Shown here: positions 3,707 through 40,005 of the stretch, in pieces
How the letters are laid out: each line of letters begins with the position of its first letter
Position numbering within the stretch: the first letter of the stretch is position 1
The notes under the pieces: generated by a model
Told to the model about the DNA's origin: nothing
What the model saw: the letters and a program-made list of their open reading frames with translations, nothing else
The model's database searches: none
Made by a program: the position numbers and the translations under genes
From: Escherichia phage vB_EcoS_SA126VB
DNA: 61,753 nucleotides
Strand: one strand, 5' to 3'
Sequence record: OL960573.1

Positions 3707-4579
3707 ATGAAAAAGAGTTCTGTAGCTATTAGTGTTGGTATGGCTTTAATTAATCCACGCGCTCGCGGTGAAGGTGATGTGGAACTGGAATACGAATATG
3801 CATCTGCGGAAGAGATCCCGGCAGAGTTTGCAACTCTTTACGCAGAGCAGGGCGGTAAATACGTTCTTGCAAAAGTTAAAGGTGTAGCCCCTGCTGATAG
3901 CGTTCGTCGTCTGGAAAGTGCGTTAGCTAAAGAACGTAACGACCATCGTCAGGTGAAGCAACAGATTAGCGCACTTGGGCGTCCGGTTGAAGAAGTCCTT
4001 GCGGACCTTGATCGTATCCCTCAACTGGAAGCTGCCGCTAACGGTAAAGGTACTCCGGAAGACATCGAAAAGATGGTTAAAGCCCGTCTTGCTCCGCTCG
4101 AGCGTCAATTACAAACTGTAGCAGCTGAACGCGATTCCGTTAAGCAGGAAATTGAAGGCTACCGCACTCGCGAAACTAAAGCGAAAATTAAAGACGCAGT
4201 TATTGCTGCTGCATCCGGTGCTAAGCTGCGTCCGTCTGCTATCGAAGATGCGGTGACTTATGCACAGTTGCAAATGACCGTCGACGAGAACGGCAATGTG
4301 GTTACGAAAGATGGGGCTGGTGTAACTCCATACCTGACTCCGGCTGATTGGCTGAACGAAATCCTTCCGAAACGTCCGCACTGGGTTGAAGGATCTGCTG
4401 GTGGCGGTGCGTCTGGTCCGGGCGCTGGCGGTCATCACGGTGAAGACCCATACAGTCACGACGGTTGGAACATCTCTAAGCAGATGAATCTCTGGAAAAC
4501 TAATCAATCTTTAGCTAAACGCTTAGCTGAAAAGAATGGCGTAGACCCGCTGAAGCCTGTACGTCCTGCTAAGAAATAA
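3707..4579 (+). CDS. putative scaffolding protein
   Basis: 290 aa, charged helical sequence between portal and major capsid genes; GGAGA RBS. Confidence 0.5.
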   Translation: MKKSSVAISVGMALINPRARGEGDVELEYEYASAEEIPAEFATLYAEQGGKYVLAKVKGVAPADSVRRLESALAKERNDHRQVKQQISALGRPVEEVLADLDRIPQLEAAANGKGTPEDIEKMVKARLAPLERQLQTVAAERDSVKQEIEGYRTRETKAKIKDAVIAAASGAKLRPSAIEDAVTYAQLQMTVDENGNVVTKDGAGVTPYLTPADWLNEILPKRPHWVEGSAGGGASGPGAGGHHGEDPYSHDGWNISKQMNLWKTNQSLAKRLAEKNGVDPLKPVRPAKK

Positions 4580-4580
4580 G

Positions 4581-4609
4581 TTGACATCCCGACGTCCCTG
4601 ATGTTAAGT
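4581..4609 (+). promoter_or_regulatory. sigma70-like promoter (TTGACA-17-TTAAGT) upstream of major capsid gene
   Basis: TTGACA at 4581-4586, 17-nt spacer, TTAAGT at 4604-4609; overlaps a 9-bp inverted repeat (CCCTGATGT/ACATCAGGG). Confidence 0.35.
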
Positions 4610-4701
4610 TTCAACACATCAGGGACACGGGTTCCTAAACAGCCTTCCACGGGGAAAGGCTACCAACAGTAAACAAATCAATCCTTTTCCTGGAGACAAG
4701 T

Positions 4702-5763
4702 ATGTCTAAATCTAAAATTATTCTACCATTTGGTCGTGGTGAAACTGACCTGACTCGTTTGAAGGATGTCATTGTCCCTGAGATCTTCACTGGTTATGTG
4801 CAGACGCAGACCGCCGAACTTTCTGCTCTGATCCAATCCGGTGCGGTTGTAATGGACGAGCGTTTATCTGCTAACCTTGCTGGTGCAGGTCTGACTTTTA
4901 ACGAGCCGTTCTATAACGACCTGAAAGATGAAGACGAAGATATCGCGGTTGATAAAGGCGATCCGTCCAAACCGTCTAACATTACTACCGGATCTGAAGT
5001 TCAGGTTCGTATGAGTCGTTCAAAATCCTGGGGTTCTGCGGATCTGGTATCTGCTTTGATCGGTAACGACCCAATGACCGCTATCGGTAACCGCGTGTCT
5101 GCGTGGTGGGTTCGCCGTCTGCAAGCTGCATACATCGCAACCTGGAAAGGCGTATTTGCTAATGCGAAGAAATCCCATAACGATGATCTGACGTTCGATA
5201 TTTCCGGTTCTTCATTTGTAAACAACCAGACCAACTTTACCGCGTCTAACTTCATCAACGCAACTGCAACGATGGGTGATGCTGCTCGCGGTCTGACTAT
5301 GATTATGGTACACTCTACCGTTCGTAACCGTATGCGTCAGTTGAACCTGATCGACTTCATTCCGGATGCTCGCGGTGAAACTCAGTTTGAGTATTATCAG
5401 GGCCTGCGTATTATCGAAGACGACTCCATGCCACACGATCCGTCTACTGGTGTGTTTGAAAGCTGGCTGTTCGGCCCGGGCGCAACTGCAATGGGTGCTG
5501 GATCACCGAAAGTTCCGACCGCTGTGGTGCGTGACGAAGCCGCTAACCAAGGCGCTGGTGAAGAAGTTCTTCACAACCGTGTTGAATGGATTCTGCATCC
5601 GGTTGGCCATGCTTGGGCTGCTGCTCAAACTGCTAAAGGTGGTCCGTCTAACGCTGCTACCACTAACAACCTGGCCCATGAAGATTCCTGGCGTCGTGCG
5701 TTCCCTGAGCGCAAGCAGCTTAAAGTTGCACGCCTGATTACTCGTGAGTATCAGGGTTCCTAA
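4702..5763 (+). CDS. major capsid protein
   Basis: 353 aa after scaffold gene, GGAGA RBS, followed by strong terminator; typical capsid size and position. Confidence 0.75.
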   Translation: MSKSKIILPFGRGETDLTRLKDVIVPEIFTGYVQTQTAELSALIQSGAVVMDERLSANLAGAGLTFNEPFYNDLKDEDEDIAVDKGDPSKPSNITTGSEVQVRMSRSKSWGSADLVSALIGNDPMTAIGNRVSAWWVRRLQAAYIATWKGVFANAKKSHNDDLTFDISGSSFVNNQTNFTASNFINATATMGDAARGLTMIMVHSTVRNRMRQLNLIDFIPDARGETQFEYYQGLRIIEDDSMPHDPSTGVFESWLFGPGATAMGAGSPKVPTAVVRDEAANQGAGEEVLHNRVEWILHPVGHAWAAAQTAKGGPSNAATTNNLAHEDSWRRAFPERKQLKVARLITREYQGS

Positions 5764-5833: not shown

Positions 5834-6157
5834 ATGCGTTATCAACGTTATGAGCGACATGACTTGATGGAAAAATCGTTGCAGGTGGAGCCAATTTCGA
5901 TTACTCTCAATCCTGCTACGATTGACACCACAACTTCAGAAGTAAAAACGGTTACTGTTAAAATAAACTTTGTCCCAGGCGGAACTACAAACAAAGCGTA
6001 TAGCGCGTCAGTTGACGGTTCCTCTGCTACAATTAAAGACAACGGGGACGGTACAATTACTGTGACCACAACCGAAAGCAGTGGTACTTCAAACTTGACA
6101 GTAACGTCCAAGGCAAAGGATAGTGTTACTGGTACATGTGTTATTAATGTGACCTAA
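5834..6157 (+). CDS. Ig-like (Big_2-type) domain protein, possible head decoration protein
   Basis: 107 aa, Thr/Ser-rich beta-strand pattern (TVTVKINF..TITVTTTE..LTVTSKAKD) typical of bacterial Ig-like domains; AGGAGAA RBS. Confidence 0.5.
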   Translation: MRYQRYERHDLMEKSLQVEPISITLNPATIDTTTSEVKTVTVKINFVPGGTTNKAYSASVDGSSATIKDNGDGTITVTTTESSGTSNLTVTSKAKDSVTGTCVINVT

Positions 6158-6173
6158 AAATAAGGATTAAACA

Positions 6174-6827
6174 ATGAAGACATTAATTGAAGCATTGTTA
6201 GAACTTGATCCGGATAACCCGAATCATTGGACTAGCGACGGTCTACCTAAAGTTGACGCTCTGCGTTTCGCTACCGCTAACCCGTCTTTAACTCGCGACG
6301 ATATTACAACTGCTGCTCCGCTGTTTACCCGCGATAACCGCGTGCTGGAAGAGCCCGAGTCAGTGGAACCTGTTAAATCTGCTGACCCAGTTTTACATGA
6401 AGCAGTTAAACAGGAGAAAGCTCATGAAGAACAAAAGAAAGTCGCGGTTGCAACGATGCAAATCGAAGTTAAGATTAGCGAAGCACTGCGTGCTCTTCTG
6501 GAGCCGGAAAAAATCGGTGACACTTCCAGCCTAAGCGATGAAGAGCTGAAAGCGAAGCGTGAAAAGCTTAGCAATGTGGTTAAAGAGATTGCCCACACTA
6601 AGCACGCGTTGGAGCTCGCTATCGCAGACGTTCAAGCGGATCTGGATAAGATTATCGTTGAGCAGGAGCGTCGTCGTCCTAAGTCCGGTCTTACTGCAAC
6701 TCAGATGTATCTTGAAGCGCAGAAAAAACGTAAACCGGAAGACATGCTTTCTGACCATCGCTTCCAGAACCCTATTGACGATCCTGTCGCCCGTATGGTT
6801 GCACGTAATATGATGCGTCGAGGTTAA
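6174..6827 (+). CDS. hypothetical head-module protein
   Basis: 217-aa ORF with AAGGA RBS, in head module. Confidence 0.45.
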   Translation: MKTLIEALLELDPDNPNHWTSDGLPKVDALRFATANPSLTRDDITTAAPLFTRDNRVLEEPESVEPVKSADPVLHEAVKQEKAHEEQKKVAVATMQIEVKISEALRALLEPEKIGDTSSLSDEELKAKREKLSNVVKEIAHTKHALELAIADVQADLDKIIVEQERRRPKSGLTATQMYLEAQKKRKPEDMLSDHRFQNPIDDPVARMVARNMMRRG

Positions 6828-6881
6828 CCATGGAAATGAGCCATAGACAATATGTGTTGTGGCTCCTCCGACGTAATAGAA

Positions 6882-6910
6882 AACGGCGTCAAGAAGACGC
6901 CGTTTCTGTT
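6882..6910 (+). terminator. stem-loop, possible attenuator or weak terminator
   Basis: AACGGCGTC-aagaa-GACGCCGTT followed by TCTGTT. Confidence 0.4.
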
Positions 6911-6965
6911 CCTGAAGAAGAGCTCCCGCCACTTATCCCTACAACCATCGCAATGAGGAAGAAAG

Positions 6966-7472
6966 ATGGAGATTCCACTGATAGTTGAAGATGGTACTGG
7001 TGTACCGGACGCCAACAGTTATGTCACCATTGAACAAGTCCGCATGTATGCCGCAATGCGAGGTATTGTACTTCCAAGTGAAGACGAAGATCTAAAGACA
7101 AAGATCTTTGACGCTATGGATTTTGTGGAAGGGTACAGCCAACGCTTTAAAGGTTATAAAATTGACCCACAGCAACCGCTAAATTGGCCACGCTACGGGG
7201 TGTTTGTGGATGGGTTCGAGCTACCCCAAAGCCCCTTACCAAAGGCGCTTATAAACGCTGTTTGCCAGCTTACAGCGGACTCAGCTACTAGCGGTCCTCT
7301 TAATGGGAAAACTACTGCATATGCAGTCAAAAGAACTAAAGTAGAAGGTCTTGAGATTGAATACGCAACTGGTAGCACAGCACAGTCAGGTCCAGCAAAA
7401 ACATATGATAAAGCTATGACGTTTTTATCACCTTTGCTGGGTTATCAAATGGGTAATAGATTGATACGGTGA
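6966..7472 (+). CDS. putative head-tail connector/adaptor protein
   Basis: 168 aa, position after head genes, GAGGAAG RBS; call by synteny. Confidence 0.45.
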   Translation: MEIPLIVEDGTGVPDANSYVTIEQVRMYAAMRGIVLPSEDEDLKTKIFDAMDFVEGYSQRFKGYKIDPQQPLNWPRYGVFVDGFELPQSPLPKALINAVCQLTADSATSGPLNGKTTAYAVKRTKVEGLEIEYATGSTAQSGPAKTYDKAMTFLSPLLGYQMGNRLIR

Positions 7473-7475
7473 TTT

Positions 7476-7856
7476 ATGAGCTTTCCTTACGAGCAGCTAG
7501 TTGAAGCTGCAAAGCAAATGATCAACGATGCTGGTGTTAACTGTACCCTTGTTGTTATGGAGCAAGGGGAAGGTCAAGATGAATGGGACGATCCGAGCGT
7601 TGAAAAACGATACCCATTCATTGGAGCTTTCCTTTCACCGAAGGAAAAGATGATTGGCGGCAGTCTTGTTTCTGCTGGTGAGCTGAAAGTGTTGACTTAC
7701 CCAATGACACCTCCATTGACTCGCGATAAAGCAATGACTGCACGCATTGAGCGTGTGTCACCGGATGGGGAACTGGAAGTGTGGACAATAAATGAGTTTG
7801 TTGATACACGACCAGCTAACGTTTCTGTTCTTTACACTTTTAAGGTGACGCGATAA
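7476..7856 (+). CDS. putative head closure/head-tail joining protein
   Basis: 126 aa, tightly packed in neck module; synteny. Confidence 0.4.
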   Translation: MSFPYEQLVEAAKQMINDAGVNCTLVVMEQGEGQDEWDDPSVEKRYPFIGAFLSPKEKMIGGSLVSAGELKVLTYPMTPPLTRDKAMTARIERVSPDGELEVWTINEFVDTRPANVSVLYTFKVTR

Positions 7857-8263
7857 TGGGATTCGGGGCGGATATTCGACGTGCAAGTCAGAAGGTACTT
7901 GTTCAGACAAGCGAGCAGGCCAAAAAAGTCGTTGTCAAGTTCACAGAGAACGTGATACAGGATACTCCTGTTAAGACCGGACGCACAAAAGGTGGTTGGC
8001 GGTCATCCATTGGTGCTCCGTATGCAACGGAAACTATCCGCCTCGATCCTACTGGAGAGATGGCTAAAGCTGAAGCCCGAGTTGTTGCACGCCAACTACC
8101 TAATGATAAAGACTGGACTTTCTACTTTAGCAACTTAAGCCCGTATGCTCCGAAACTTGAATATCTTGGTTGGTCGCAGCAAGCGCCAAATGGCATGGTG
8201 CGTATTAACGTAGCGAAGCTTCCAATGTTAATACGCCAAGCTATTGTAGAAGGAAAACTATAA
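7856..8263 (+). CDS. putative neck/tail terminator protein
   Basis: 135 aa, ATG overlaps previous stop; synteny. Confidence 0.4.
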   Translation: MGFGADIRRASQKVLVQTSEQAKKVVVKFTENVIQDTPVKTGRTKGGWRSSIGAPYATETIRLDPTGEMAKAEARVVARQLPNDKDWTFYFSNLSPYAPKLEYLGWSQQAPNGMVRINVAKLPMLIRQAIVEGKL

Positions 8264-27010: not shown

Positions 27011-27037
27011 TATTAAAACAGACCCGCGAAGGGTCTG
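27011..27037 (-). terminator. rho-independent terminator after DNA polymerase gene
   Basis: CAGACCC-gcgaa-GGGTCTG followed on the minus strand by UUUUAAUA. Confidence 0.6.
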
Positions 27038-27047
27038 CAAGTGGAAT

Positions 27048-29033
27048 TTAGGCGTATCCCATGTCTTCGAGATACTTCTCTGCTTTAGCTATATAAGCAT
27101 CATAATCTATGTCGTCCGGTATTTTATCCGGTAGCGTCATGATTGGGACACCTCCCGCGCTACCAGCTACACGGTTGCCCGAGTTAGCATAGATTATTTC
27201 GGGAGTTTCTTCATTGGTGCTTAAATACCAGCGTACAACCTTACCCAAAAATTCGCCATTCCATACCGCGCCGCCTTTTACTGCACGTAGGATAATGAAT
27301 TTTCTAATATCGTTGCAATTGCGTATAGTACGAGAAACAGGCGTACCGTGGGCCAAACATTCACATACAGCTTCCATAATAATTTCACCAGTACAGTTCT
27401 TTTGAAGCCCTGTTTTCGCGAACCAGCCTTTACGTTTAATTTCAACATTTCCTTCCTCATCAGGTTCTTTTACTGCAACATAGTTGTTGACGTTAGCACT
27501 GTACAGCTTGTCATAGTAGTTGGATTCCATTTTAAAACCTGTTACGGATTCCCACCACTTAATCATGTTATCAACGAAATCCTGCATGTGGTCAGGGTAC
27601 TTAACCACAATGCCATCCGTGTTAGCTGAAATTACTTTAACACCGTTCAGCTCAAACGCTTCAATAAGCATTAACAGAGATAGCTGTCCTGTGATAGTTA
27701 CCTGTATCAACAATTGCGGCGCGTACAATACAGACCACATTGAACCCAATTTACCGAACGATCCGTTGATTACGATCTTCAGCGTGTTGGCTGTGTTCTT
27801 GTCTCCTGAGTGCTTAGCCGCAATACGACGGTCTACAATGCTTTTATAAACACGAAGGAACGCTGGTCCCAACTGCTCAGGGTATAAGCCCTGATTAAGA
27901 ATAATTGAAGGGTAATAGGACGTTACGTCAATGTCTCGCTTCTTAATACCTGGCTCTTTACCGTGACCAGCACATTCTTCAGAGCTGTGTAGCCCACCGA
28001 TACCCATACGGTAGACACCGTCCGCAATCTTGATCTCCAGACCTGTTAAGGCTGGGGGCAAGCTAATGCCACCGTTATCGCTAACAACAAAGCGGCAGTC
28101 GCGAACAATATCCAAAACACTATTCATCAGAGGTGTTTGAAAACGAATAAAGTCCGGTATGTTATACGCATACTTTGTTCCAGGATAAACTTGGGGACGC
28201 TGCGGACGCACACCAGTTAACGCTTGAATTTCGTGTTTAATTACGTCTTCTGCAATCTGCGCATCAGAACGTGAACGCAGATCCACACCGTATTCTTGCG
28301 ACATAATTTCACGAAGATGTAAAGGTTCCTGTAATGCAATAAAACATTCTTCCGTCTGTACAAGGTCGTTAATACAGTACCAGCGTACAATAAGCATCTG
28401 GTCCTGCGTCAACATTGTATTTGGCTTGAACGGTAAATCCTGCATACGGCGAGTATGTACACGTCCGCCATATTGTTTCAAACCACCAGATCCAGGCAGA
28501 ACTTCCATAATATCAATGTGGTTAACGTTCTGCATACGCTTGAGACGGTAACTTTTCAATACATCCGAAGGACGCCAATCTTCAACGATTATCTTATCGG
28601 TTGCGTCTTTAAGCTGCGCATTAGAACAGCCGTTAAGCGCAAGCGTAGCAATGGTCATATCGTAACCGTTACCGTTAAAGCTCACGATAAGGAAGTTTGT
28701 CATTACCCAGTTAAGTAGCAAGCAATTCAAACTACAACCGTGATACATTTCGAAGTAGACAACTTTCTTAGTCCTTACTCCGCGGAATGCGATCAAGAAG
28801 TAGTTTGAATAACATTCAATATCATATACAAGCGGTTCGCGGTTAATCCATGCTTGAATAAGTTCATCCTGTGTGTACAGGTTGTATTGGAAGTTCCGCG
28901 CTTCCTCAAGATTAGGCAAATAATCCGGGCGCTCCCAAGTGCGCTCCGGCGGTAAACGTTTAACTTTTTCTTTCTTTGCTTTTGGCTCAGGCGGTAAGTC
29001 CTGCCAAAAGAAACCAATAGCATCTGTCCGCAT
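27048..29033 (-). CDS. DNA polymerase, family B (compact, with 3'-5' exonuclease motifs)
   Basis: Exo motifs YDIECYS, FNGNGYD, YCINDL; polymerase motifs DVTSYYPSII (A), KIVINGSFGK (B), SANTDGIVV (C); ATG 29033 overlaps upstream stop (TAATG), GGAGAA RBS; track start 29087 is TTG. Confidence 0.75.
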   Translation of the reverse strand: MRTDAIGFFWQDLPPEPKAKKEKVKRLPPERTWERPDYLPNLEEARNFQYNLYTQDELIQAWINREPLVYDIECYSNYFLIAFRGVRTKKVVYFEMYHGCSLNCLLLNWVMTNFLIVSFNGNGYDMTIATLALNGCSNAQLKDATDKIIVEDWRPSDVLKSYRLKRMQNVNHIDIMEVLPGSGGLKQYGGRVHTRRMQDLPFKPNTMLTQDQMLIVRWYCINDLVQTEECFIALQEPLHLREIMSQEYGVDLRSRSDAQIAEDVIKHEIQALTGVRPQRPQVYPGTKYAYNIPDFIRFQTPLMNSVLDIVRDCRFVVSDNGGISLPPALTGLEIKIADGVYRMGIGGLHSSEECAGHGKEPGIKKRDIDVTSYYPSIILNQGLYPEQLGPAFLRVYKSIVDRRIAAKHSGDKNTANTLKIVINGSFGKLGSMWSVLYAPQLLIQVTITGQLSLLMLIEAFELNGVKVISANTDGIVVKYPDHMQDFVDNMIKWWESVTGFKMESNYYDKLYSANVNNYVAVKEPDEEGNVEIKRKGWFAKTGLQKNCTGEIIMEAVCECLAHGTPVSRTIRNCNDIRKFIILRAVKGGAVWNGEFLGKVVRWYLSTNEETPEIIYANSGNRVAGSAGGVPIMTLPDKIPDDIDYDAYIAKAEKYLEDMGYA

Positions 29034-29986
29034 TAGACACGTTCTCCAATTAATACACCGCGAAGATTGTCCCCAAAGAATGCGCAAGGTTGCGGATATA
29101 AACTAAAGTCCGCAGTCTTAACCACATTTTCAAGCAATAACAGGATATCAATATTGTACACTCCCGTTATTGTTCGGTCCTGTAATACGAAGCTTGCACC
29201 TTCCGCATCATCATAGTGAGTACGGGCTAGACCGTTTTCAATATATACACGCGGTCGGTCTTCTGCGAACGGTTTAATTTTATGCAAGCCCTCAAAAAGA
29301 CCTGGATCAACAGGATGTGCATTGCATTGAACATTTAAAATACGACGTATATCGGGCCACTCCGCATCAATAAGCTGTGTTCGCAACCAGCGACCTTCCG
29401 GATAATGAAACGTTACATTGTTCTTACTAACCTGAATATGTGTCGGGTTAGCTTTAATGCGAAGTATTTCTTTAATAGCAACAGACGGTATTATGCAGTC
29501 AATAGGGAATTGATTACCAAACCAATATTCCGCAATGGTGACGTTATTTGTAGCAAACAGGCTACCGTTATTAATCAGAATACCGCAAGCCCACGGGCGG
29601 GACGCATCCGAGCCTACAAACGGAGCAACAGACTTCACACCGTGTACGAAGCGAGCACCGTCTATTTCGTATAAATCACCTTCAGGGAATACGTGAGGCG
29701 TTTCCTTGTCAATGCAGCGTATAGCAACACGAAACGGTCCGGACTTAATATTAAGTTTACCGTTAGCCATCATTGTTAACTGTACGGTTTCGTCACAGTT
29801 TGAAATAGCTTTAATCATAGGCCCAGCTTCAGGCTTGCAATCAATATCCAGCTCAATAGGGCTACCCAGTGCAATAACACCGTTAAAGCCCTGTACCTGT
29901 CCATCACGGATAAGAAAGCTGGTAAGCCCTTCTACCAGTTCCTTTTTAGCGACGGACCCTTGAACAAATTTAAGAGCGTCTAACAT
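29033..29986 (-). CDS. beta sliding clamp-like protein (DnaN-like)
   Basis: 317 aa; LIDAEWPDIRRILNV closely resembles the DnaN segment LVDGRFPDYRRVLP (recalled from memory); translationally coupled to polymerase. Confidence 0.5.
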   Translation of the reverse strand: MLDALKFVQGSVAKKELVEGLTSFLIRDGQVQGFNGVIALGSPIELDIDCKPEAGPMIKAISNCDETVQLTMMANGKLNIKSGPFRVAIRCIDKETPHVFPEGDLYEIDGARFVHGVKSVAPFVGSDASRPWACGILINNGSLFATNNVTIAEYWFGNQFPIDCIIPSVAIKEILRIKANPTHIQVSKNNVTFHYPEGRWLRTQLIDAEWPDIRRILNVQCNAHPVDPGLFEGLHKIKPFAEDRPRVYIENGLARTHYDDAEGASFVLQDRTITGVYNIDILLLLENVVKTADFSLYPQPCAFFGDNLRGVLIGERV

Positions 29987-30213
29987 TAGCGATCCTCGAT
30001 TGCTCTAATTGTGGTTAAATCTAATTCGCAGGTTGGAGGGTATCCATAAAGTTCCATTTGTTTTCCTTGTGCATTAAACCATGTACCTGATGGATCCTGC
30101 CACTGCTTAGGTGTCTTGTGGAGAAATACTACTCTGTTTTCACCATAATAATTAATTCTTACTCCTGTGTGAGTATATTTACGTTTACCTTTTGGTCTTC
30201 TTAAGTTAGCCAT
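29986..30213 (-). CDS. hypothetical small protein
   Basis: 75 aa, Lys/Arg-rich N-terminus; start and stop both overlap neighbours. Confidence 0.4.
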   Translation of the reverse strand: MANLRRPKGKRKYTHTGVRINYYGENRVVFLHKTPKQWQDPSGTWFNAQGKQMELYGYPPTCELDLTTIRAIEDR

Positions 30214-31133
30214 CAGAACAACTCCATTACACGATCACGGAATGTGCCGTCATGGGTGGCGTTAATGTTTGCAGCAATTACACCATACGCCCATAAGTTG
30301 AAGGCAGCACGTGATTCATAGATTGTTGATAAACGTTCGTAAGTGAAACCGTTTTGCTCAAGGTATTTAAGGACAGCGTCTTGTTCGATTTCAGTTAATG
30401 TTGAAACATGCTTACCAAAATGATGGCGGTCCGGTGACTTATCTGATACGCGCATTGGTCCCCACGGAGGGGTAACCACACTTCCAAACGCTGCCGCTTG
30501 AATCCAGGAGGATGAGTCGCAGCTATACCACGGATAACGTTCCATGATGGTTGTTGACGTAATACCAAACGCATGAAGTTTAATCTTAGCACGTCCGCTA
30601 CCGTCGCAAATATATTTGTCCCACATGCGGTCAAGCCAAGTCTTAAGCGTGTCCGTGGAACGCCCTACCATGCCCCCGATGGTGATATATTCGTAGTTCT
30701 TCATGTAGTATTCAAGATAGCGGAAGTCTTCACCAAAGTGAAAGCAAGGTAACGGTTTAGCACCGCGTGCTTCCATTTCAAGCTGGTTACGGTAGGTTTG
30801 CAACGGGTCACCGATACCATCGAGTACCGACGCCATTACCGCACCATCTTCAACGCGAAGGATGTCTTTGTTGCGCTTAATGTATTCGCAGTATTCAACA
30901 ATATCAATGTGAGCACCTAAAGAATGTGCAGAGAATGCACCGGAGTCGAGAAATACTTTAGCCCCGTCCGCACGCATCTGATCAACATACTTTTGACGCC
31001 CAACGTAGTGATATGATTCCAAAATATGGGGCAGATTGCGCGTGATATTTTTCTCATGCTCAGACAGCTTTTCATAACGCTGCTGGCCAGGCATATATCC
31101 GTTCGTGTAAACTGCTGCCATAAAAACGTTCAT
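30213..31133 (-). CDS. dpdA: DpdA-like tRNA-guanine-transglycosylase-family protein (predicted DNA 7-deazaguanine transglycosylase)
   Basis: 306 aa; FLDSGAFS matches the TGT catalytic DSGGFQ region; no CxCxxC..H zinc motif; sits beside folE/queD/queC/queE. Confidence 0.65.
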   Translation of the reverse strand: MNVFMAAVYTNGYMPGQQRYEKLSEHEKNITRNLPHILESYHYVGRQKYVDQMRADGAKVFLDSGAFSAHSLGAHIDIVEYCEYIKRNKDILRVEDGAVMASVLDGIGDPLQTYRNQLEMEARGAKPLPCFHFGEDFRYLEYYMKNYEYITIGGMVGRSTDTLKTWLDRMWDKYICDGSGRAKIKLHAFGITSTTIMERYPWYSCDSSSWIQAAAFGSVVTPPWGPMRVSDKSPDRHHFGKHVSTLTEIEQDAVLKYLEQNGFTYERLSTIYESRAAFNLWAYGVIAANINATHDGTFRDRVMELF

Positions 31134-37117: not shown

Positions 37118-39094
37118 TTAGAACGGAACGTAATCCGGATCATCTACTTGTACAGGGTTAACCACATTGTTCACCGTTATACCTTGCGTATTCTGCGAAA
37201 CAATATCGTCCCAGCTTACATCATCATTATAGCTCGGACCTTCTGTTGTTCCATCCTGCCCGTATACTTTAACCTGAATAGCTTCGTCGTCCTGTGGAGC
37301 TTCAAACTTACCGAAACAAGTACCATCATAATCATAGTTCAATATCTCAGGCCATTTCTTATTGGTATGAACTTTGATGTATTTTGGTGTTTTAAGCATT
37401 GCAGCAACATCAAGAGCTTCTTCAATAGTTTGTGGTAAAGGTAAATGTGTCCTTTTCTTCCACCATGCGACCGCTTTACGACCCGCCCAGTCCCCATGAA
37501 GCAGAGCTACCCATTCACTGAATATTTTACTACCGCAATAATAAGTCACCTTCATTGTTGGAGGTTTAGAGCTGTCATTGCGTTTAGTATGCTTTGCATA
37601 AGTAACATGCGTAACTTTAAAGTCTTCGACTACTGGAATATCCTGCTTGATCAGGGCTTCCGTACTTGCAGCTTTCTTGAGTTTGGTCTGAAACTTAAAC
37701 TCATGACCGCAAAAGCCTTCTTTAACGTAATCCGTCCCGCGTAGTCTAAATCCTTTCAGATATAATTGTTGAACTTGTTCCTGTGTAACACTGTCCATCG
37801 GGATTGGTGCGAAGCCACCGCAATAGCGAGCGGACGCATGATTATACGACCCGCACACATCGCATTCTTTAACTGGAGCAGTACCAGCACCTTTTTCGCC
37901 AGGGCGCTTGGGTTTAACAGGGTCGTTAATAGGGCCCAAACGGCGCGTATTACCGCTGAAATCCAGTACAAGGCAGTTCTGCTTAGGGCTTGCCGCAATA
38001 GCTTGTAAGCGCCCCTCCTGCGTGGAAAGATCAAAGCCCTCCGCGTATACCGGACGCGTACCGCGACCCAGCATCTGAACCCATAGCACCGCCGACGCAG
38101 TAGGGCGGAGCATGATGATCAGGTCAAGCATTGGATGATCAAAACCTGTGGTTAAGACGTTATTGTTAGTTAATGCTCGAAATTCACCGCGCTTGAATTT
38201 TTCAATAATCTCGTCACGTTCTTTTGCATCAAGCTTAGAGTGAATACATCCACAGCTAATACCCATATCGTTCAGCATATCACACGCGTCTTTAGCGTGT
38301 TCAATACCAGAACAAAATATAAGCCAGCTTTGACGGTCTTCACCACATTCAATCGCTTCCTCAAGTGCGCGGAGTGTTGCGTCATCGCGGTTTACCGCAC
38401 TTTGCAGCTCACTCTGGATAAACTCACCGCCGCGTTTACCTACCCCGTTGAGATCCAGCTCCATCTTAGTACGCTTTGGCACAACCGGAAGAAGATAACC
38501 TTGTTCCAGGAACCAGTTGAAGGCTTCCGGAGTAGTTGCATCAAACGTTACCTTATCAAATAACGCATCATCGTCTTCGTTTTCCTTAACAATTGAACCA
38601 TACCCTAGTCGATAAGGTGTAGCAGTAAGACCGATGATTTTTAAGTAAGGGTTAACTTCACGCAACGCTGCAAAGAACTTCTTATACATTGTTGCATCAC
38701 GCGGACTAATAAGATGCGCTTCATCCACAAAAATAAGATCAACTTTGCCGAACTTTTTCGGATGCTTAGCAACGGACGCAATTCCTGCAAAGGTAATAAG
38801 ATTGTAGACTTCTTTACGCTTCAAACCCGCGCTGTAAATACCTGCTGGCGCTTCGGGCCAGACTTTCATTAATTTATCATAGTTTTGTGCAATTAACTCT
38901 TTGACGTGAGTTAACATCATTACGCGCTGGTTTGGATACCATTTGTAAAGCAGATCGAGGAACCCCGCGATAACGAGCGATTTTCCTGTCCCTGTTGGTA
39001 ACAGGATCAAAGGGTTCCCCGCGTTACCCTTTTCAGCATCAAAATAGCGGAATACGCTATAAACTGCTTCCTGTTGATAATCGCGGAGCCTCAT
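37118..39094 (-). CDS. superfamily-2 DEAH-box DNA helicase with C-terminal Cys-rich region
   Basis: Walker A LLPTGTGKS, motif II IFVDEAHLIS, CDVCGSYNHASARYCGG; ATG 39094 (track start 39100 is TTG), GGGAAAG RBS. Confidence 0.7.
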   Translation of the reverse strand: MRLRDYQQEAVYSVFRYFDAEKGNAGNPLILLPTGTGKSLVIAGFLDLLYKWYPNQRVMMLTHVKELIAQNYDKLMKVWPEAPAGIYSAGLKRKEVYNLITFAGIASVAKHPKKFGKVDLIFVDEAHLISPRDATMYKKFFAALREVNPYLKIIGLTATPYRLGYGSIVKENEDDDALFDKVTFDATTPEAFNWFLEQGYLLPVVPKRTKMELDLNGVGKRGGEFIQSELQSAVNRDDATLRALEEAIECGEDRQSWLIFCSGIEHAKDACDMLNDMGISCGCIHSKLDAKERDEIIEKFKRGEFRALTNNNVLTTGFDHPMLDLIIMLRPTASAVLWVQMLGRGTRPVYAEGFDLSTQEGRLQAIAASPKQNCLVLDFSGNTRRLGPINDPVKPKRPGEKGAGTAPVKECDVCGSYNHASARYCGGFAPIPMDSVTQEQVQQLYLKGFRLRGTDYVKEGFCGHEFKFQTKLKKAASTEALIKQDIPVVEDFKVTHVTYAKHTKRNDSSKPPTMKVTYYCGSKIFSEWVALLHGDWAGRKAVAWWKKRTHLPLPQTIEEALDVAAMLKTPKYIKVHTNKKWPEILNYDYDGTCFGKFEAPQDDEAIQVKVYGQDGTTEGPSYNDDVSWDDIVSQNTQGITVNNVVNPVQVDDPDYVPF

Positions 39095-39096
39095 AA

Positions 39097-40005
39097 TCAA
39101 TCTTTCCCGTAATAATTAGCTACTTGATAGTTTTGACAACCAACTTTCTGTCCTTGCGTATCCACTGCGACGGAATGGAAATTGCAATACCATGTTCCAT
39201 CTTCTTTAGGTTCAAGGAATTGGCATGTGCGGCAGTTTACTTCCGGCATAGTTTTACGCCAGCATAGTGAGGAGTGATCGCACCATTTACATTCGAAGAA
39301 AGTGGGATCTTTAAATGCGCGGTCCGGAATGTCTGTAGCAATAGCAATCTGCACACCACGATCAATATACATGTCCGCGGTAACAGGATCAAACGGAATA
39401 ATTTCTGCGTAAACTTCATCGTCATTCTTGTTTACAGCAAGATATAACGCTGCGCCAAGACCTAGTTTTCGCATGTACACGTTCATCTGTACATAGTGCT
39501 CAGGTTTGGCTTCTTTAACACCTTTAGCTTTCAGCTTTTTAAAAGACTTATCGTTATGTGTCTTCATTTCGGTGAGCACAGGCATCCCAGGCTGCACGTC
39601 CGGACAACCTATAACCACACCATCGCAGGAACCTCCAAAGTGTCCGCCAGCTTCGCTGATACGGAACTGGTGTCCATTTTCGTCCTGCTGGTAGACCTGC
39701 ATACCTGCCGCAAGAAGCATAGCAATGAAACGCGCTTCTTCCAGATGTCCACGGTTAAACAGTCGAAGCTGGCGTCCGTCAAACTCTTTGCGTGTGGCCC
39801 ATCGATATCCATAGAAAAGCTTGCGTGCGCATTGTTGACCAATAAGGGAAGCGCCTAAGTGGCTGCGGTTACCGCTTTCAGGGCGATAAGCGTCTTCAAT
39901 TGTGGGAATAACTACGCCAAGATACTTACGGTAAGTCCCACCCTGATCTTTTTGCACACCGTCATTGATCGCTTGAAGTGTTTTTTCTGCAATATAAATA
40001 GCCAT
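39097..40005 (-). CDS. PD-(D/E)XK exonuclease, Cas4/RecB-like with predicted Fe-S cluster
   Basis: QMNVY (QhxxY) motif, D..EMK core, C-terminal CKWCDHSSLC plus an N-terminal Cys. Confidence 0.6.
   Translation of the reverse strand: MAIYIAEKTLQAINDGVQKDQGGTYRKYLGVVIPTIEDAYRPESGNRSHLGASLIGQQCARKLFYGYRWATRKEFDGRQLRLFNRGHLEEARFIAMLLAAGMQVYQQDENGHQFRISEAGGHFGGSCDGVVIGCPDVQPGMPVLTEMKTHNDKSFKKLKAKGVKEAKPEHYVQMNVYMRKLGLGAALYLAVNKNDDEVYAEIIPFDPVTADMYIDRGVQIAIATDIPDRAFKDPTFFECKWCDHSSLCWRKTMPEVNCRTCQFLEPKEDGTWYCNFHSVAVDTQGQKVGCQNYQVANYYGKD

Follow-up and report, generated by a model that had tools for sequence, protein, structure and literature searches.

The genome of Escherichia phage vB_EcoS_SA126VB (OL960573.1) carries a compact family-B DNA polymerase gene directly behind a gene that resembles the one for the bacterial sliding clamp, and the arrangement raises the question of how a small viral polymerase gains a bacterial-type clamp and how that clamp reaches DNA. 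The window analyzed here is the whole stretch of 61,753 nucleotides. Our reading, which we consider probable, is that the locus encodes a replicase core in which the family-B polymerase is tethered by an N-terminal module to a phage DnaN clamp, with the clamp most likely loaded by the host and the transglycosylase DpdA perhaps recruited to it.

Both open reading frames (ORFs) are on the minus strand (Table 1), the polymerase measuring 661 aa from its ATG; an alternative start at an upstream TTG (29087), found by the ORF lister, would lengthen it to 679 aa. At their junction, gtgtcTAATGcgg, the stop codon of the clamp-like gene and the start codon of the polymerase share one base (TAATG), in agreement with the initial annotation of a 317-aa upstream gene overlapped by the polymerase ATG. 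The same one-base overlap is found at both junctions further upstream, TGATG between dpdA and orf75 and TAATG between orf75 and the clamp gene, and such a series of overlaps would favor co-production of the encoded proteins. The hairpin and T-run behind the polymerase gene is the strongest such site within 26.5-33.5 kb. Given the overlaps and this terminator-like element, dpdA, orf75, the clamp gene and polB read as the last genes of a single operon, and the earlier assignment of the pair to the same operon as dpdA is supported. Among 64 related loci, 37 have a clamp ORF that ends no more than 10 nt from the start of the polymerase, and the two genes are always on the same strand.

Table 1. 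Features of the dpdA-polB region, in order of transcription (positions in the window).
Feature	Position	Strand	Basis or remark
dpdA, 7-deazaguanine DNA transglycosylase; opens the overlap-coupled series	30213..31133	-	phrog_887, 8e-96
DpdA C-terminus RVMELF-COOH, candidate second clamp-binding peptide	30216..30233	-	Orthologue conservation
orf75, 75 aa, function unknown, overlap-coupled on both sides	29986..30213	-	ORF; phrog_38388
DnaN-type beta sliding clamp, 317 aa	29033..29986	-	phrog_947, PHROG 4e-82
Clamp residues 205-219, LIDAEWPDIRRILNV	29330..29374	-	Aligned with E. coli beta LVDGRFPDYRRVLP by phmmer and hhalign
polB, proofreading family-B DNA polymerase, 661 aa	27048..29033	-	phrog_1252
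Candidate clamp-binding peptide RTDAIGFFWQD, polymerase residues 2-12	28998..29030	-	R2, D4, G7, F9, W10 and D12 invariant
Pro/Lys-rich variable linker, polymerase residues 13-40	28914..28997	-	Composition, length variation
Exo I, DIECY, residues 71-75 (D71/E73)	28809..28823	-	Invariant, 25 homologues
Exo II, FNGNGYD, residues 119-125 (N120/D125)	28659..28679	-	Invariant, 25 homologues
Exo III, YCINDL, residues 219-224 (Y219/D223)	28362..28379	-	Invariant, 25 homologues
Motif A, DIDVTSYYPSII	27900..27935	-	D367, D369, S372, Y374 and P375 invariant
Motif B, KIVINGSFGK, residues 419-428	27750..27779	-	K419, N423, G424 and G427 invariant
Motif C, SANTDG	27612..27629	-	First Asp of DTD replaced by N471, second (D473) kept
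Intrinsic-terminator-like hairpin and T-run, directly 3' of the polB stop	27018..27038	-	8-pair stem, 5 G-C pairs

Across 2.9 kb of the window, nucleotide identity to phages OddieOddie, KurtStettler, CAjan and slur01 is 94-96% with conserved gene order, and the phage can be placed as a CAjan-like Seuratvirus (Queuovirinae) coliphage. CAjan gp32/gp33, Vid5 ORF29/ORF30 and phage 9g represent the same system, with the orthologous pair in the same order beside the dpdA/preQ0 cluster; in Vid5, a PolB (cd05538) is reported to be followed by a beta subunit matching DnaN 3T0P at an HHpred value of 100%. Records of cultured phages contain the clamp family in 361 cases and the polymerase family in 483, and a PolB with a DnaN-type clamp adjoining the dpdA cluster is already annotated in Queuovirinae, including the CAjan-like Seuratviruses, and in hundreds of other phages. 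Therefore, while the initial annotation was right to see a PolB paired with a DnaN-type clamp, the pairing is not the unusual replisome that it was taken for. The literature that we searched on the Seuratvirus or CAjan polymerase and clamp, on N-terminal clamp-binding motifs (CBMs) in phage PolBs and on DpdA with a clamp yielded genome-annotation statements only: the published accounts found stop at annotation and are silent on how the clamp is loaded, on the N-terminal peptide and on the DpdA tail. A search for enzymology of this PolB clade found none. What looks new here are candidate clamp hooks on the polymerase N-terminus and, probably, on the DpdA tail.

The 317-aa protein is best explained as a bacterial-type (DnaN) beta sliding clamp. 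Its AF2 model (pLDDT 91, pTM 0.85) contains three tandem domains and superposes full-length on DnaN structures at a TM of ~0.8, and the top 50 Foldseek matches are all DnaN (E ~2e-20, TMq 0.77-0.83); the complete clamp fold, on which the earlier likening to DnaN had been made to depend, is thus predicted. At the sequence level, a profile search of the PDB finds DnaN at 3.8e-5, alignment with E. coli beta by hhalign gives a probability of 88% over 278 columns, and Pfam DNA_pol3_beta matches the central domain only, at 22.3 bits, below its gathering threshold of 27. The segment LIDAEWPDIRRILNV, which had first suggested the resemblance, is present at residues 205-219 and would be equivalent to part of a predicted peptide-binding pocket. 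Pocket residues of E. coli beta include P242, R246 and V247 (PMC11139829), and T172, P242, R246 and V247 of that protein align with T146, P211, R215 and I216 of the phage clamp, the C-terminal part of the pocket being unaligned. T146 and P211, together with W210, are invariant among clamp homologues. Such a clamp would serve as the processivity factor of the polymerase.

A bacterial-type clamp without a loader raises the question of whether the phage co-opts the host DnaX complex or its clamp assembles loader-free. No phage clamp loader is recognized among the early genes, in which Pfam identifies AAA_24 (Sak4-like), SF2 helicase and primase-helicase only, and the 54 kb of the CAjan record that were inspected, from 5.7 kb to the end, contain no annotated loader. 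The phage clamp is acidic (pI 5.55; homologues 5.1-6.6, n=30), consistent with ring-forming clamps, and because of this and the lack of a recognizable phage loader, loading by the host DnaX complex is the most likely route. It is also the weakest step of our explanation, since the clamp is ~50 residues shorter than cellular DnaN and 14-17% identical to it, which makes recognition by the host loader uncertain. An alternative that we regard as unlikely is that the protein is a clamp-fold processivity subunit that forms no closed ring, binding the polymerase stoichiometrically and DNA directly without a loader. Its short length and the missing loader gene would fit, as would the roughly 1:1 production suggested by the one-base overlap, and there are precedents among viral clamp homologues (PMC3201878, PMC13648687): herpesvirus UL42/UL44, the beta homologue of Bacillus phage 0305phi8-36 and PhiKZ Rhc, a clamp-derived subunit (PMC13648687), also have a clamp fold with no loader encoded. 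However, the protein described here has a complete DnaN fold, all three domains being modeled with high confidence, and its acidic pI differs from the raised pI of loader-independent homologues (PMC3201878). Furthermore, a flexible peptide tether, as proposed below for the polymerase, is typical of clients of ring clamps.

The N-terminus of the polymerase follows the consensus M-R-x-D-[AS]-[ILV]-G-[FL]-F-W-x-D in 61 distinct sequences and is predicted to be disordered (pLDDT <50). Pro makes up 24% and Lys 19% of the 22 residues directly after FW, and this linker leads into a small structured N-extension (to approximately residue 65), with pLDDT climbing from 54 to 85. The spacing from the Trp to Exo I ranges from 55 to 112 residues, and one homologue has a 44-residue insertion in the linker region. 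Relatives that lack a clamp also lack the N-extension. The N-terminal peptide and the clamp gene co-occur, at 64 of 65 loci against 0 of 46, counts in which the loci are not phylogenetically independent and in which clamp absence was scored within 6-10 kb of the polymerase with a family-specific profile. The cultured phage AH2 provides a clamp-less example in line with this co-occurrence, and one locus (L070) has the N-extension and no clamp within 6 kb. The two polymerase architectures therefore offer a natural experiment on how a polymerase gains a clamp, in which peptide, linker and small domain arise together with the clamp gene.

The core of the peptide, A-[ILV]-G-[FL]-F, resembles a beta-clamp-binding motif of the Q-phi-x-[LM]-[FL] type in being terminal and disordered but is missing the Gln, a residue that is likewise absent from the CBM of the E. 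coli delta subunit, AMSLF. Motif conservation and co-occurrence with the clamp suggest that the peptide binds the clamp, and the disordered peptide, the flexible Pro/Lys linker and the small structured element would together act as a tether. Its N-terminal position is unusual for a polymerase. E. coli Pol II, also a family-B enzyme with 3'-5' exonuclease, engages a DnaN-type clamp by means of a short peptide at one terminus, QLGLF, which is similar to A-[IL]-G-[FL]-F of the phage consensus. However, Pol II carries this motif at its C-terminus with Gln as the first residue, whereas the phage motif is at the N-terminus, has no Gln and runs on into W-x-D. Pol II, at 783 aa, has a complete N-terminal domain and DTD as its motif C, and it acts in repair with the host clamp and loader, whereas the phage PolB is a proposed replicase. 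In T4 and RB69, the gp45 clamp is PCNA-like, a trimer whose subunits have two domains; it is served by a dedicated gp44/62 loader, and the gp43 tether is C-terminal, in contrast to a three-domain DnaN-type clamp, no encoded loader and a proposed tether at the N-terminus in the phage studied here. The search of the polymerase for a clamp-binding motif that the initial annotation had recommended thus provides a candidate, although not at its sole strict match: QLSLL (residues 450-454) is part of a modeled helix (439-462) between motifs B and C, and clamp-less relatives conserve it just as well (TGQL[SA]LLMLIE). No CBM-like motif is present at the polymerase C-terminus (...YLEDMGYA). In all six reading frames of the window, the pattern G[FLMI][FW]W has a single match, and no other replication protein contains it.

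It is improbable, in our view, that the peptide docks instead on another partner, such as the host beta clamp, the primase-helicase or the SSB-like DUF669 protein, with its co-occurrence with the clamp reflecting the shared ancestry of a single lineage. The counts carry no phylogenetic correction, a peptide with no clamp nearby does exist at L070, and likeness to E. coli CBMs means that host beta could be bound too. Nevertheless, the association spans clamps whose E-values against our A2 clamp profile range over more than 100 orders of magnitude, from ~1e-28 to 1e-164, and it extends to phages that infect Escherichia, Pseudomonas, Rhizobium and Synechococcus. Moreover, N-termini co-vary with clamps, GLFW-type versus MFFEE-type, and it is the whole extension, not the peptide alone, that is missing from clamp-less relatives.

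The body of the polymerase is most readily explained as a proofreading, primer-dependent family-B enzyme. The exonuclease motifs, DVTSYYPSII (residues 369-378), KIVINGSFGK and ANTDG (residues 470-474), all named in the initial annotation, are present. Exo I, II and III have the DxE, Nx2-3[FY]D and Yx3D patterns of a DEDDy 3'-5' exonuclease, and motifs A and B conform to DxxSLYPS and KxxxNSxYG, motif B having Gly for Ser and Phe for Tyr. By HMMER, motif B aligns to those of Sso PolB1 and E. coli Pol II, and motif C aligns to the GDTDS of both enzymes. The clade comprises at least 4749 clusters at 50% identity, is covered by no Pfam model and is marked by a minimal N-terminus (Exo I is almost at the start of the shortest members) and by an invariant S-A-N-T-D-G.

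Two Asp residues in motif C are typical of PolBs, though not universal. Instead of the two-Asp YGDTDS, every member examined has Asn at the first Asp, as first pointed out in the initial annotation, and S469-G474 are invariant in both the homologue alignment and the clamp-less set. As S-A-N-T-D-G is invariant across the clade, Asn471 is a family trait, predicted to be compatible with activity, and we reject the reading of it as an inactivating lesion; catalysis would use D369 of motif A and D473 of motif C. The enzymes piPolB, PolB_SITDG and archaeal B2 likewise keep only the second Asp of DTD, and NTDG is also present in other phage PolBs. Our literature search on motif C Asp-to-Asn mutagenesis found nothing relevant. 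The possession of two motif C Asp residues by most PolBs, and the weak activity of archaeal B2 polymerases that have one (PMC7544198), might suggest a weak or specialized polymerase, translesion-like as proposed for archaeal PolB2, with the genome replicated by host Pol III, perhaps on the phage clamp. We find this very hard to credit, given that the three Exo motifs and motifs A and B are, like S-A-N-T-D-G, invariant over thousands of clusters and that piPolB is highly active without the first Asp. In addition, the examined virulent phages carrying the gene have primase, helicase, ligase and RNase H annotated but no other DNA polymerase.

Because a Pfam search of the polymerase returned no family match, its membership rests on profiles and fold. 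In the modeled structure, the exonuclease, palm, fingers and thumb have the arrangement known from Pol II, RB69 and archaeal PolBs, and searches by sequence and by fold both place E. coli Pol II among their best matches. Although the orthologue in Synechococcus phage Ssp-JY38 is labeled 'DNA polymerase A' and Pfam is silent, membership in family A, the outcome against which the initial annotation had set its family-B call, is refuted by this fold comparison.

The replicase core may serve a further client. In CAjan, the presence of dPreQ0 in DNA requires DpdA (PMC6884629), and dPreQ0 replaces ~32% of G, a modification that blocks restriction enzymes. The DpdA of the phage studied here is 100% identical to that of slur01 and other phages, and a PDB sequence search with it gave no matches. 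Its C-terminus conforms to a conserved tail, x-x-E-L-F, seen wherever a phage DnaN is close by, and [LFM]F lies within the last five residues of 55 of 58 distinct orthologue C-termini. Actinophage DpdAs, used as controls, are without the tail, a contrast confounded by ancestry since they represent a different subfamily whose C-terminal region is unalignable. The tail is a candidate hook for the clamp. We tentatively extend this to a clamp that acts as a hub, in which the DpdA tail (...[VI]-[QR]-E-L-F-COOH, or R-R-L-F in Dp-1-type phages) binds the clamp and modification is co-replicative. DpdA would ride the clamp behind PolB, exchanging guanine for preQ0/G+ on nascent phage DNA, with the clamp either loaded by the host DnaX complex or self-assembling with the polymerase. 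Such a hub would explain why dpdA, clamp and polB share one overlap-coupled operon and how modification could be aimed at phage and not host DNA. Docking of the tail would make 7-deazaguanine modification replication-coupled, which bears on phage anti-restriction biology and on the engineering of modified DNA.

Streptococcus phage Dp-1 and Bacillus phage Flasso likewise have DnaN just downstream of dpdA, and their DpdAs also end in LF (...RRLF and ...GKLF). They differ in encoding DnaX-, delta- or delta'-like loader subunits and in having full-length clamps (352-357 aa), which the A2 clamp profile misses. The Flasso stretch examined also carries a DNA polymerase I gene.

The initial annotation had described a polymerase gene whose ATG overlaps the stop codon of an upstream 317-aa gene. 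All of the strings that it quoted were found at their expected places, and the overlap is seen at the junction, gtgtcTAATGcgg, where one base is common to the stop and start codons. One-base overlaps are also found upstream, between the 7-deazaguanine DNA transglycosylase gene dpdA and a 75-aa gene, orf75 (TGATG), and between orf75 and the 317-aa clamp-like gene (TAATG). A mechanical ORF list starts the polymerase at an upstream TTG, giving 679 aa. An 8-bp, G+C-rich hairpin is the strongest terminator-like site within 26.5-33.5 kb and marks the end of the dpdA-clamp-polB operon. Given the overlaps and this hairpin, dpdA-orf75-clamp-polB looks like the tail end of a single operon, as far as can be read from sequence.

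Coordinates of features in the window
Feature	Position	Strand	Description
Clamp-like ORF	29986..29033	-	317 aa
Polymerase ORF (polB)	29033..27048	-	661 aa counted from ATG
Intrinsic-terminator-like hairpin and T-run	27018..27038	-	GCAGACCC-ttcgc-GGGTCTG; begins 9 nt past polB stop
dpdA	31133..30213	-	7-deazaguanine DNA transglycosylase gene
DpdA C-terminal RVMELF-COOH, candidate clamp-binding tail	30216..30233	-	conserved terminal x-x-E-L-F
SF2 helicase	37118..39100	-	

The polymerase has no Pfam match and is assigned by PHROGs to phrog_1252 ('DNA polymerase', 1.8e-227). Against the PDB, the single sequence matched S. solfataricus PolB1 (5.8e-5) and E. coli Pol II (0.013) over motifs B and C, and a 25-sequence profile matched PolB1 (1.6e-6), E. 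coli Pol II (6.9e-6) and Pol alpha (about 1e-4). An AlphaFold2 model from the 25-sequence alignment (mean pLDDT 87.7, pTM 0.80) retrieved family-B enzymes for all of the top 50 Foldseek matches in the PDB (E 3e-15 to 9e-13). These profile and fold matches rule out family A and place the polymerase in family B, as had been proposed. Across the 25 homologues (53-91% identity), Exo I D71/E73, Exo II N120/D125 and Exo III Y219/D223 are invariant, as are motif A D367, D369, S372, Y374 and P375 and motif B K419, N423 and G427; the enzyme would be expected to be a proofreading replicase. GenBank labels the orthologous PolB of Synechococcus phage Ssp-JY38 (21892..23889) 'DNA polymerase A'; membership of the same PolB family is indicated by its N-terminus (MPRWDNVGLFWQD) and by the gene immediately before it, which is annotated 'DNA polymerase III beta subunit'.

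Motif C does read ANTDG, with Asn for the first Asp, but this is not peculiar to the gene. S469-A-N-T-D-G474 is invariant in the 25-homologue alignment. Burkholderia phage AH2 and 18 clamp-less polymerases that are more distantly related keep it too, and one relative, locus L070, differs (SGNTDG). Because SANTDG is kept in close relatives and in more distant, clamp-less ones, the Asn is, judged from these alignments, a clade signature, and a lesion of this gene is rejected. Some active PolBs, piPolB among them, can do without the first Asp; a PolB_SITDG group is also described, as are archaeal B2 enzymes that have only one Asp, and NTDG strings in other phage PolBs appear in a supplementary table (PMC7544198). 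The clade is very large: the scored candidates include at least 7960 90%-identity clusters, and at 50% identity there are 4749 representatives with an E cut-off of 1e-3 and 1976 with one of 1e-30. None of the 120 best-listed 90%-identity clusters has a precomputed Pfam domain.

The 317-aa protein belongs to phrog_947 ('DNA polymerase processivity factor', 4e-82); Pfam finds the central DnaN domain only, below threshold (22.3 versus 27 bits). A 30-sequence profile matched DnaN structures at 3.8e-5, and hhalign with E. coli beta covered 278 columns at 88% probability. The AF2 model is confident (pLDDT 91, pTM 0.85), and its top 50 Foldseek matches are all DnaN, with full-length superposition (E about 2e-20, TMq 0.77-0.83, identity 14-17%). 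Judged by its modelled fold, the protein is a DnaN-type clamp. The segment in which a resemblance to DnaN had been noticed, LIDAEWPDIRRILNV, aligns with LVDGRFPDYRRVLP of E. coli beta, which supplies P242, R246 and V247 of the peptide-binding pocket (PMC11139829). Within the phage family, W210 and P211 of the clamp do not vary.

Thirty-five phage records match the 2.9-kb stretch at 94-96% identity, almost all of them from CAjan-like E. coli siphophages (genus Seuratvirus, Queuovirinae), e.g. OddieOddie, KurtStettler, CSP1, CAjan and slur01. In a CAjan-like record the polB and clamp genes occupy the same position, adjoining dpdA, folE, queD, queC and queE, and polB serves as a Seuratvirus phylogenetic marker (PMC5758909). 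Pantoea phage Vid5 has a PolB (CDD cd05538) followed by a beta subunit with an HHpred probability of 100% to DnaN 3T0P (PMC6266253). The arrangement is already published at annotation level, and the feature itself is known. While both protein identities hold, the initial annotation's unusual replisome does not: the pair is neither rare nor new, the clamp family being found in 361 cultured phage records (hosts Pseudomonas, Escherichia, Salmonella, Stenotrophomonas, Vibrio, Xanthomonas, Rhizobium and others) and the polymerase clade in 483, with both annotated in relatives. Three points of interest remain: a candidate N-terminal clamp tether gained or lost along with the clamp gene, the lack of a phage loader for a clamp of bacterial type, and a tail on DpdA that may bind the clamp.

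A search of the polymerase for a clamp-binding motif, proposed in the initial annotation, found none at the C-terminus. The only strict internal match, QLSLL (residues 450-454), was rejected: the model places it in a helix between motifs B and C, and clamp-less relatives conserve it just as well. The candidate that emerged is at the N-terminus, where R2, D4, G7, F9, W10 and D12 are invariant in the 25 homologues. Among 61 distinct sequences the consensus is M-(A)-R-x-D-[AS]-[ILV]-G-[FL]-F-W-x-D, starting 2-8 residues from Met1; the linker that follows is rich in Pro (24%) and Lys (19%), and 55 to 112 residues separate the motif from Exo I. In the AF2 model, residues 1-13 have pLDDT below 50, and confidence climbs only past about residue 30. 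A peptide that is invariant, predicted to be disordered and joined by a variable linker is what a short linear interaction motif usually looks like. Its core, A-[IL]-G-[FL]-F, resembles two beta-binding peptides, QLGLF of E. coli Pol II and AMSLF of the delta subunit, the latter without the Gln of the canonical Q-phi-x-[L/M]-[F/L] (PMC11139829). Five comparison sequences (L028, L030, L033, L047 and P0096) have a 40-60-residue insertion between the FW peptide and the Pro/Lys linker (alignment columns 15-58), which contains a conserved HGWVEVFPGFWAE-like segment and lengthens the tether.

In an exhaustive polymerase search, the matches of many relatives begin at query residue 65-69, and these relatives therefore lack the whole N-extension, that is, the peptide, the linker and a small structured element ahead of Exo I. 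We gathered 160 IMG/VR loci by two profile scans and scored them with HMMs from the polymerase and clamp alignments, removing duplicates, requiring at least 1.5 kb upstream and judging clamp absence within 6-10 kb. The clamp gene was present in 64 of 65 loci with the N-extension (polymerase start at profile position 30 or earlier), in 9 of 12 intermediate loci (31-59) and in none of 46 starting at Exo I (60 or later). The difference between 64/65 and 0/46 has a Fisher value of 1.2e-30, for loci that are not phylogenetically independent. In every case the clamp gene precedes the polymerase on the same strand, and in 37/64 loci the gap to the polymerase start is no more than 10 nt. The nine clamps of the intermediate class are more divergent, and most of their polymerases keep an aromatic N-terminus (MFFEE, MFFDD, MFFEN, VKFFD, LYFFKDD, NGF[IV]), two or three having no obvious aromatic motif; in the three clamp-less loci the polymerase appears to begin near Exo I. 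Burkholderia phage AH2 is a cultured example of the short class: its polymerase begins MSYSDPRKTAVCDTECY, and no clamp match is found in the 28-kb stretch around it. Among the loci with the N-extension, the sole exception is L070 (N-terminus ...LDLFWWEE), which lacks a clamp gene within 6 kb; its clamp may have been lost or may be encoded in another part of the 25-kb contig. In this locus (IMGVR_UViG_3300030943_000159) the polymerase lies at 5917..7947 (...NLDLFWWEES...), directly downstream of a QueE-like gene. The pattern is maintained over widely diverged clamps and hosts; we regard it as good evidence, from gene content, that the N-extension is a clamp-interaction module, from which we infer physical binding.

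No clamp-loader subunit was recognisable by Pfam among the ten largest early proteins, where an SF2 helicase, DUF669, an AAA_24 (Sak4-like) ATPase, an ATP-dependent ligase and a DUF3987/NrS-1-like primase-helicase were identified, and none is listed in the CAjan annotation from 5.7 kb to the record end. Streptococcus phage Dp-1 and Bacillus phage Flasso likewise have dpdA beside DnaN, but encode loader subunits. The main rival is that the clamp acts independently of a loader, in the manner of UL42 or Rhc (PMC13648687). However, the clamp is acidic (pI 5.55; 5.1-6.6 in 30 homologues; 5.25 in E. coli beta), which would be the signature of ring-forming clamps as opposed to loader-independent homologues by the criterion of Kazlauskas and Venclovas (PMC3201878). 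The most economical reading would be that the clamp is a ring and that the host DnaX complex loads it. The SF2 helicase ends ...VDDPDYVPF, resembling an acidic SSB tail, which in E. coli SSB is DDDIPF. Two DUF669-like proteins upstream of QueE in L070 (3883..4428 and 4607..5182) end ...MDVPI and ...NDDVPF, and such ends may be a further linear motif organising the phage replisome.

DpdA, encoded by the first gene of the overlap-coupled run, ends ...RDRVMELF-COOH. Among distinct orthologue C-termini from the fetched loci, 55/58 have [LFM]F in the last five residues, most commonly as VQELF, IQELF or VRELF and less often as QMGLF, QQGLF or other variants; the three remaining C-termini read QELY or have their LF a few residues inward. 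A variable segment precedes the tail, as would be expected of a linear motif. Cultured phages of distant hosts also have such a tail, and the clamp gene lies just downstream of dpdA in all of them: PSASB_03 (...EQMELF), Rhizobium RHEph06 (...EQRLF), Synechococcus Ssp-JY38 (...DPVLF), Dp-1 (...QRRLF) and Flasso (...QGKLF). Searching with the DpdAs of Dp-1 and Flasso as seeds gave 32 loci, with DnaN about 0-4 kb downstream of dpdA wherever sequence sufficed. Nineteen distinct sequences were complete at the C-terminus: 14 end in [KRSTNP]-L-F, one in L-I, and four (IMG/VR loci L185, L187, L189 and L190) are fused to a roughly 200-aa extension. These extensions end ...ELKAGF, ...LRNGFNS, ...LKSGFNF and ...LKGGF, so that G-F at, or within two residues of, the C-terminus would substitute for L-F. 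Among polymerase-centred loci with at least 4.5 kb upstream, 55 have both clamp and dpdA, 12 the clamp only, 47 neither, and none dpdA only.

The LF tail is absent from actinophage DpdAs (Qyrzula, Hilltopfarm, Finch, Mufasa8 and two from Megan), and no phage clamp is found in the short stretches fetched around them; mycobacteriophages are likewise missing among the clamp tblastn matches listed. In most of these actinophages dpdA adjoins a ParB-like gene. This control is confounded, and does not separate function from ancestry, because these proteins align to about the first two-thirds of the window DpdA only. CAjan DpdA is essential for swapping about 32% of G for dPreQ0 (PMC6884629), and the literature searched gave no link between DpdA and a sliding clamp. 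If the tail binds the clamp, 7-deazaguanine modification would be coupled to replication; we regard such co-replicative modification as a tentative proposal, somewhat short of an even chance.

A DpdA-like protein of Pseudomonas phage Epa33 (14863..15588) ends ...GQAELSL, which fits the hexameric host-clamp motif Q-phi-x-L-x-[FL] and could be chance; CI/Cro is present, and no clamp is annotated in the surrounding 22.6 kb. In Cellulophaga phage phiSM, the DpdA-like CEPG_00053 is without an LF tail, and a 360-aa protein annotated 'DNA polymerase subunit III' (CEPG_00047) is taken as a DnaN-like clamp. The small proteins flanking CEPG_00053 (2466..3119 and 3839..4303) end ...NQVNLF and ...TSVNLF, near the Pol V motif QLNLF, and in this lineage the tail may be borne by partner proteins.
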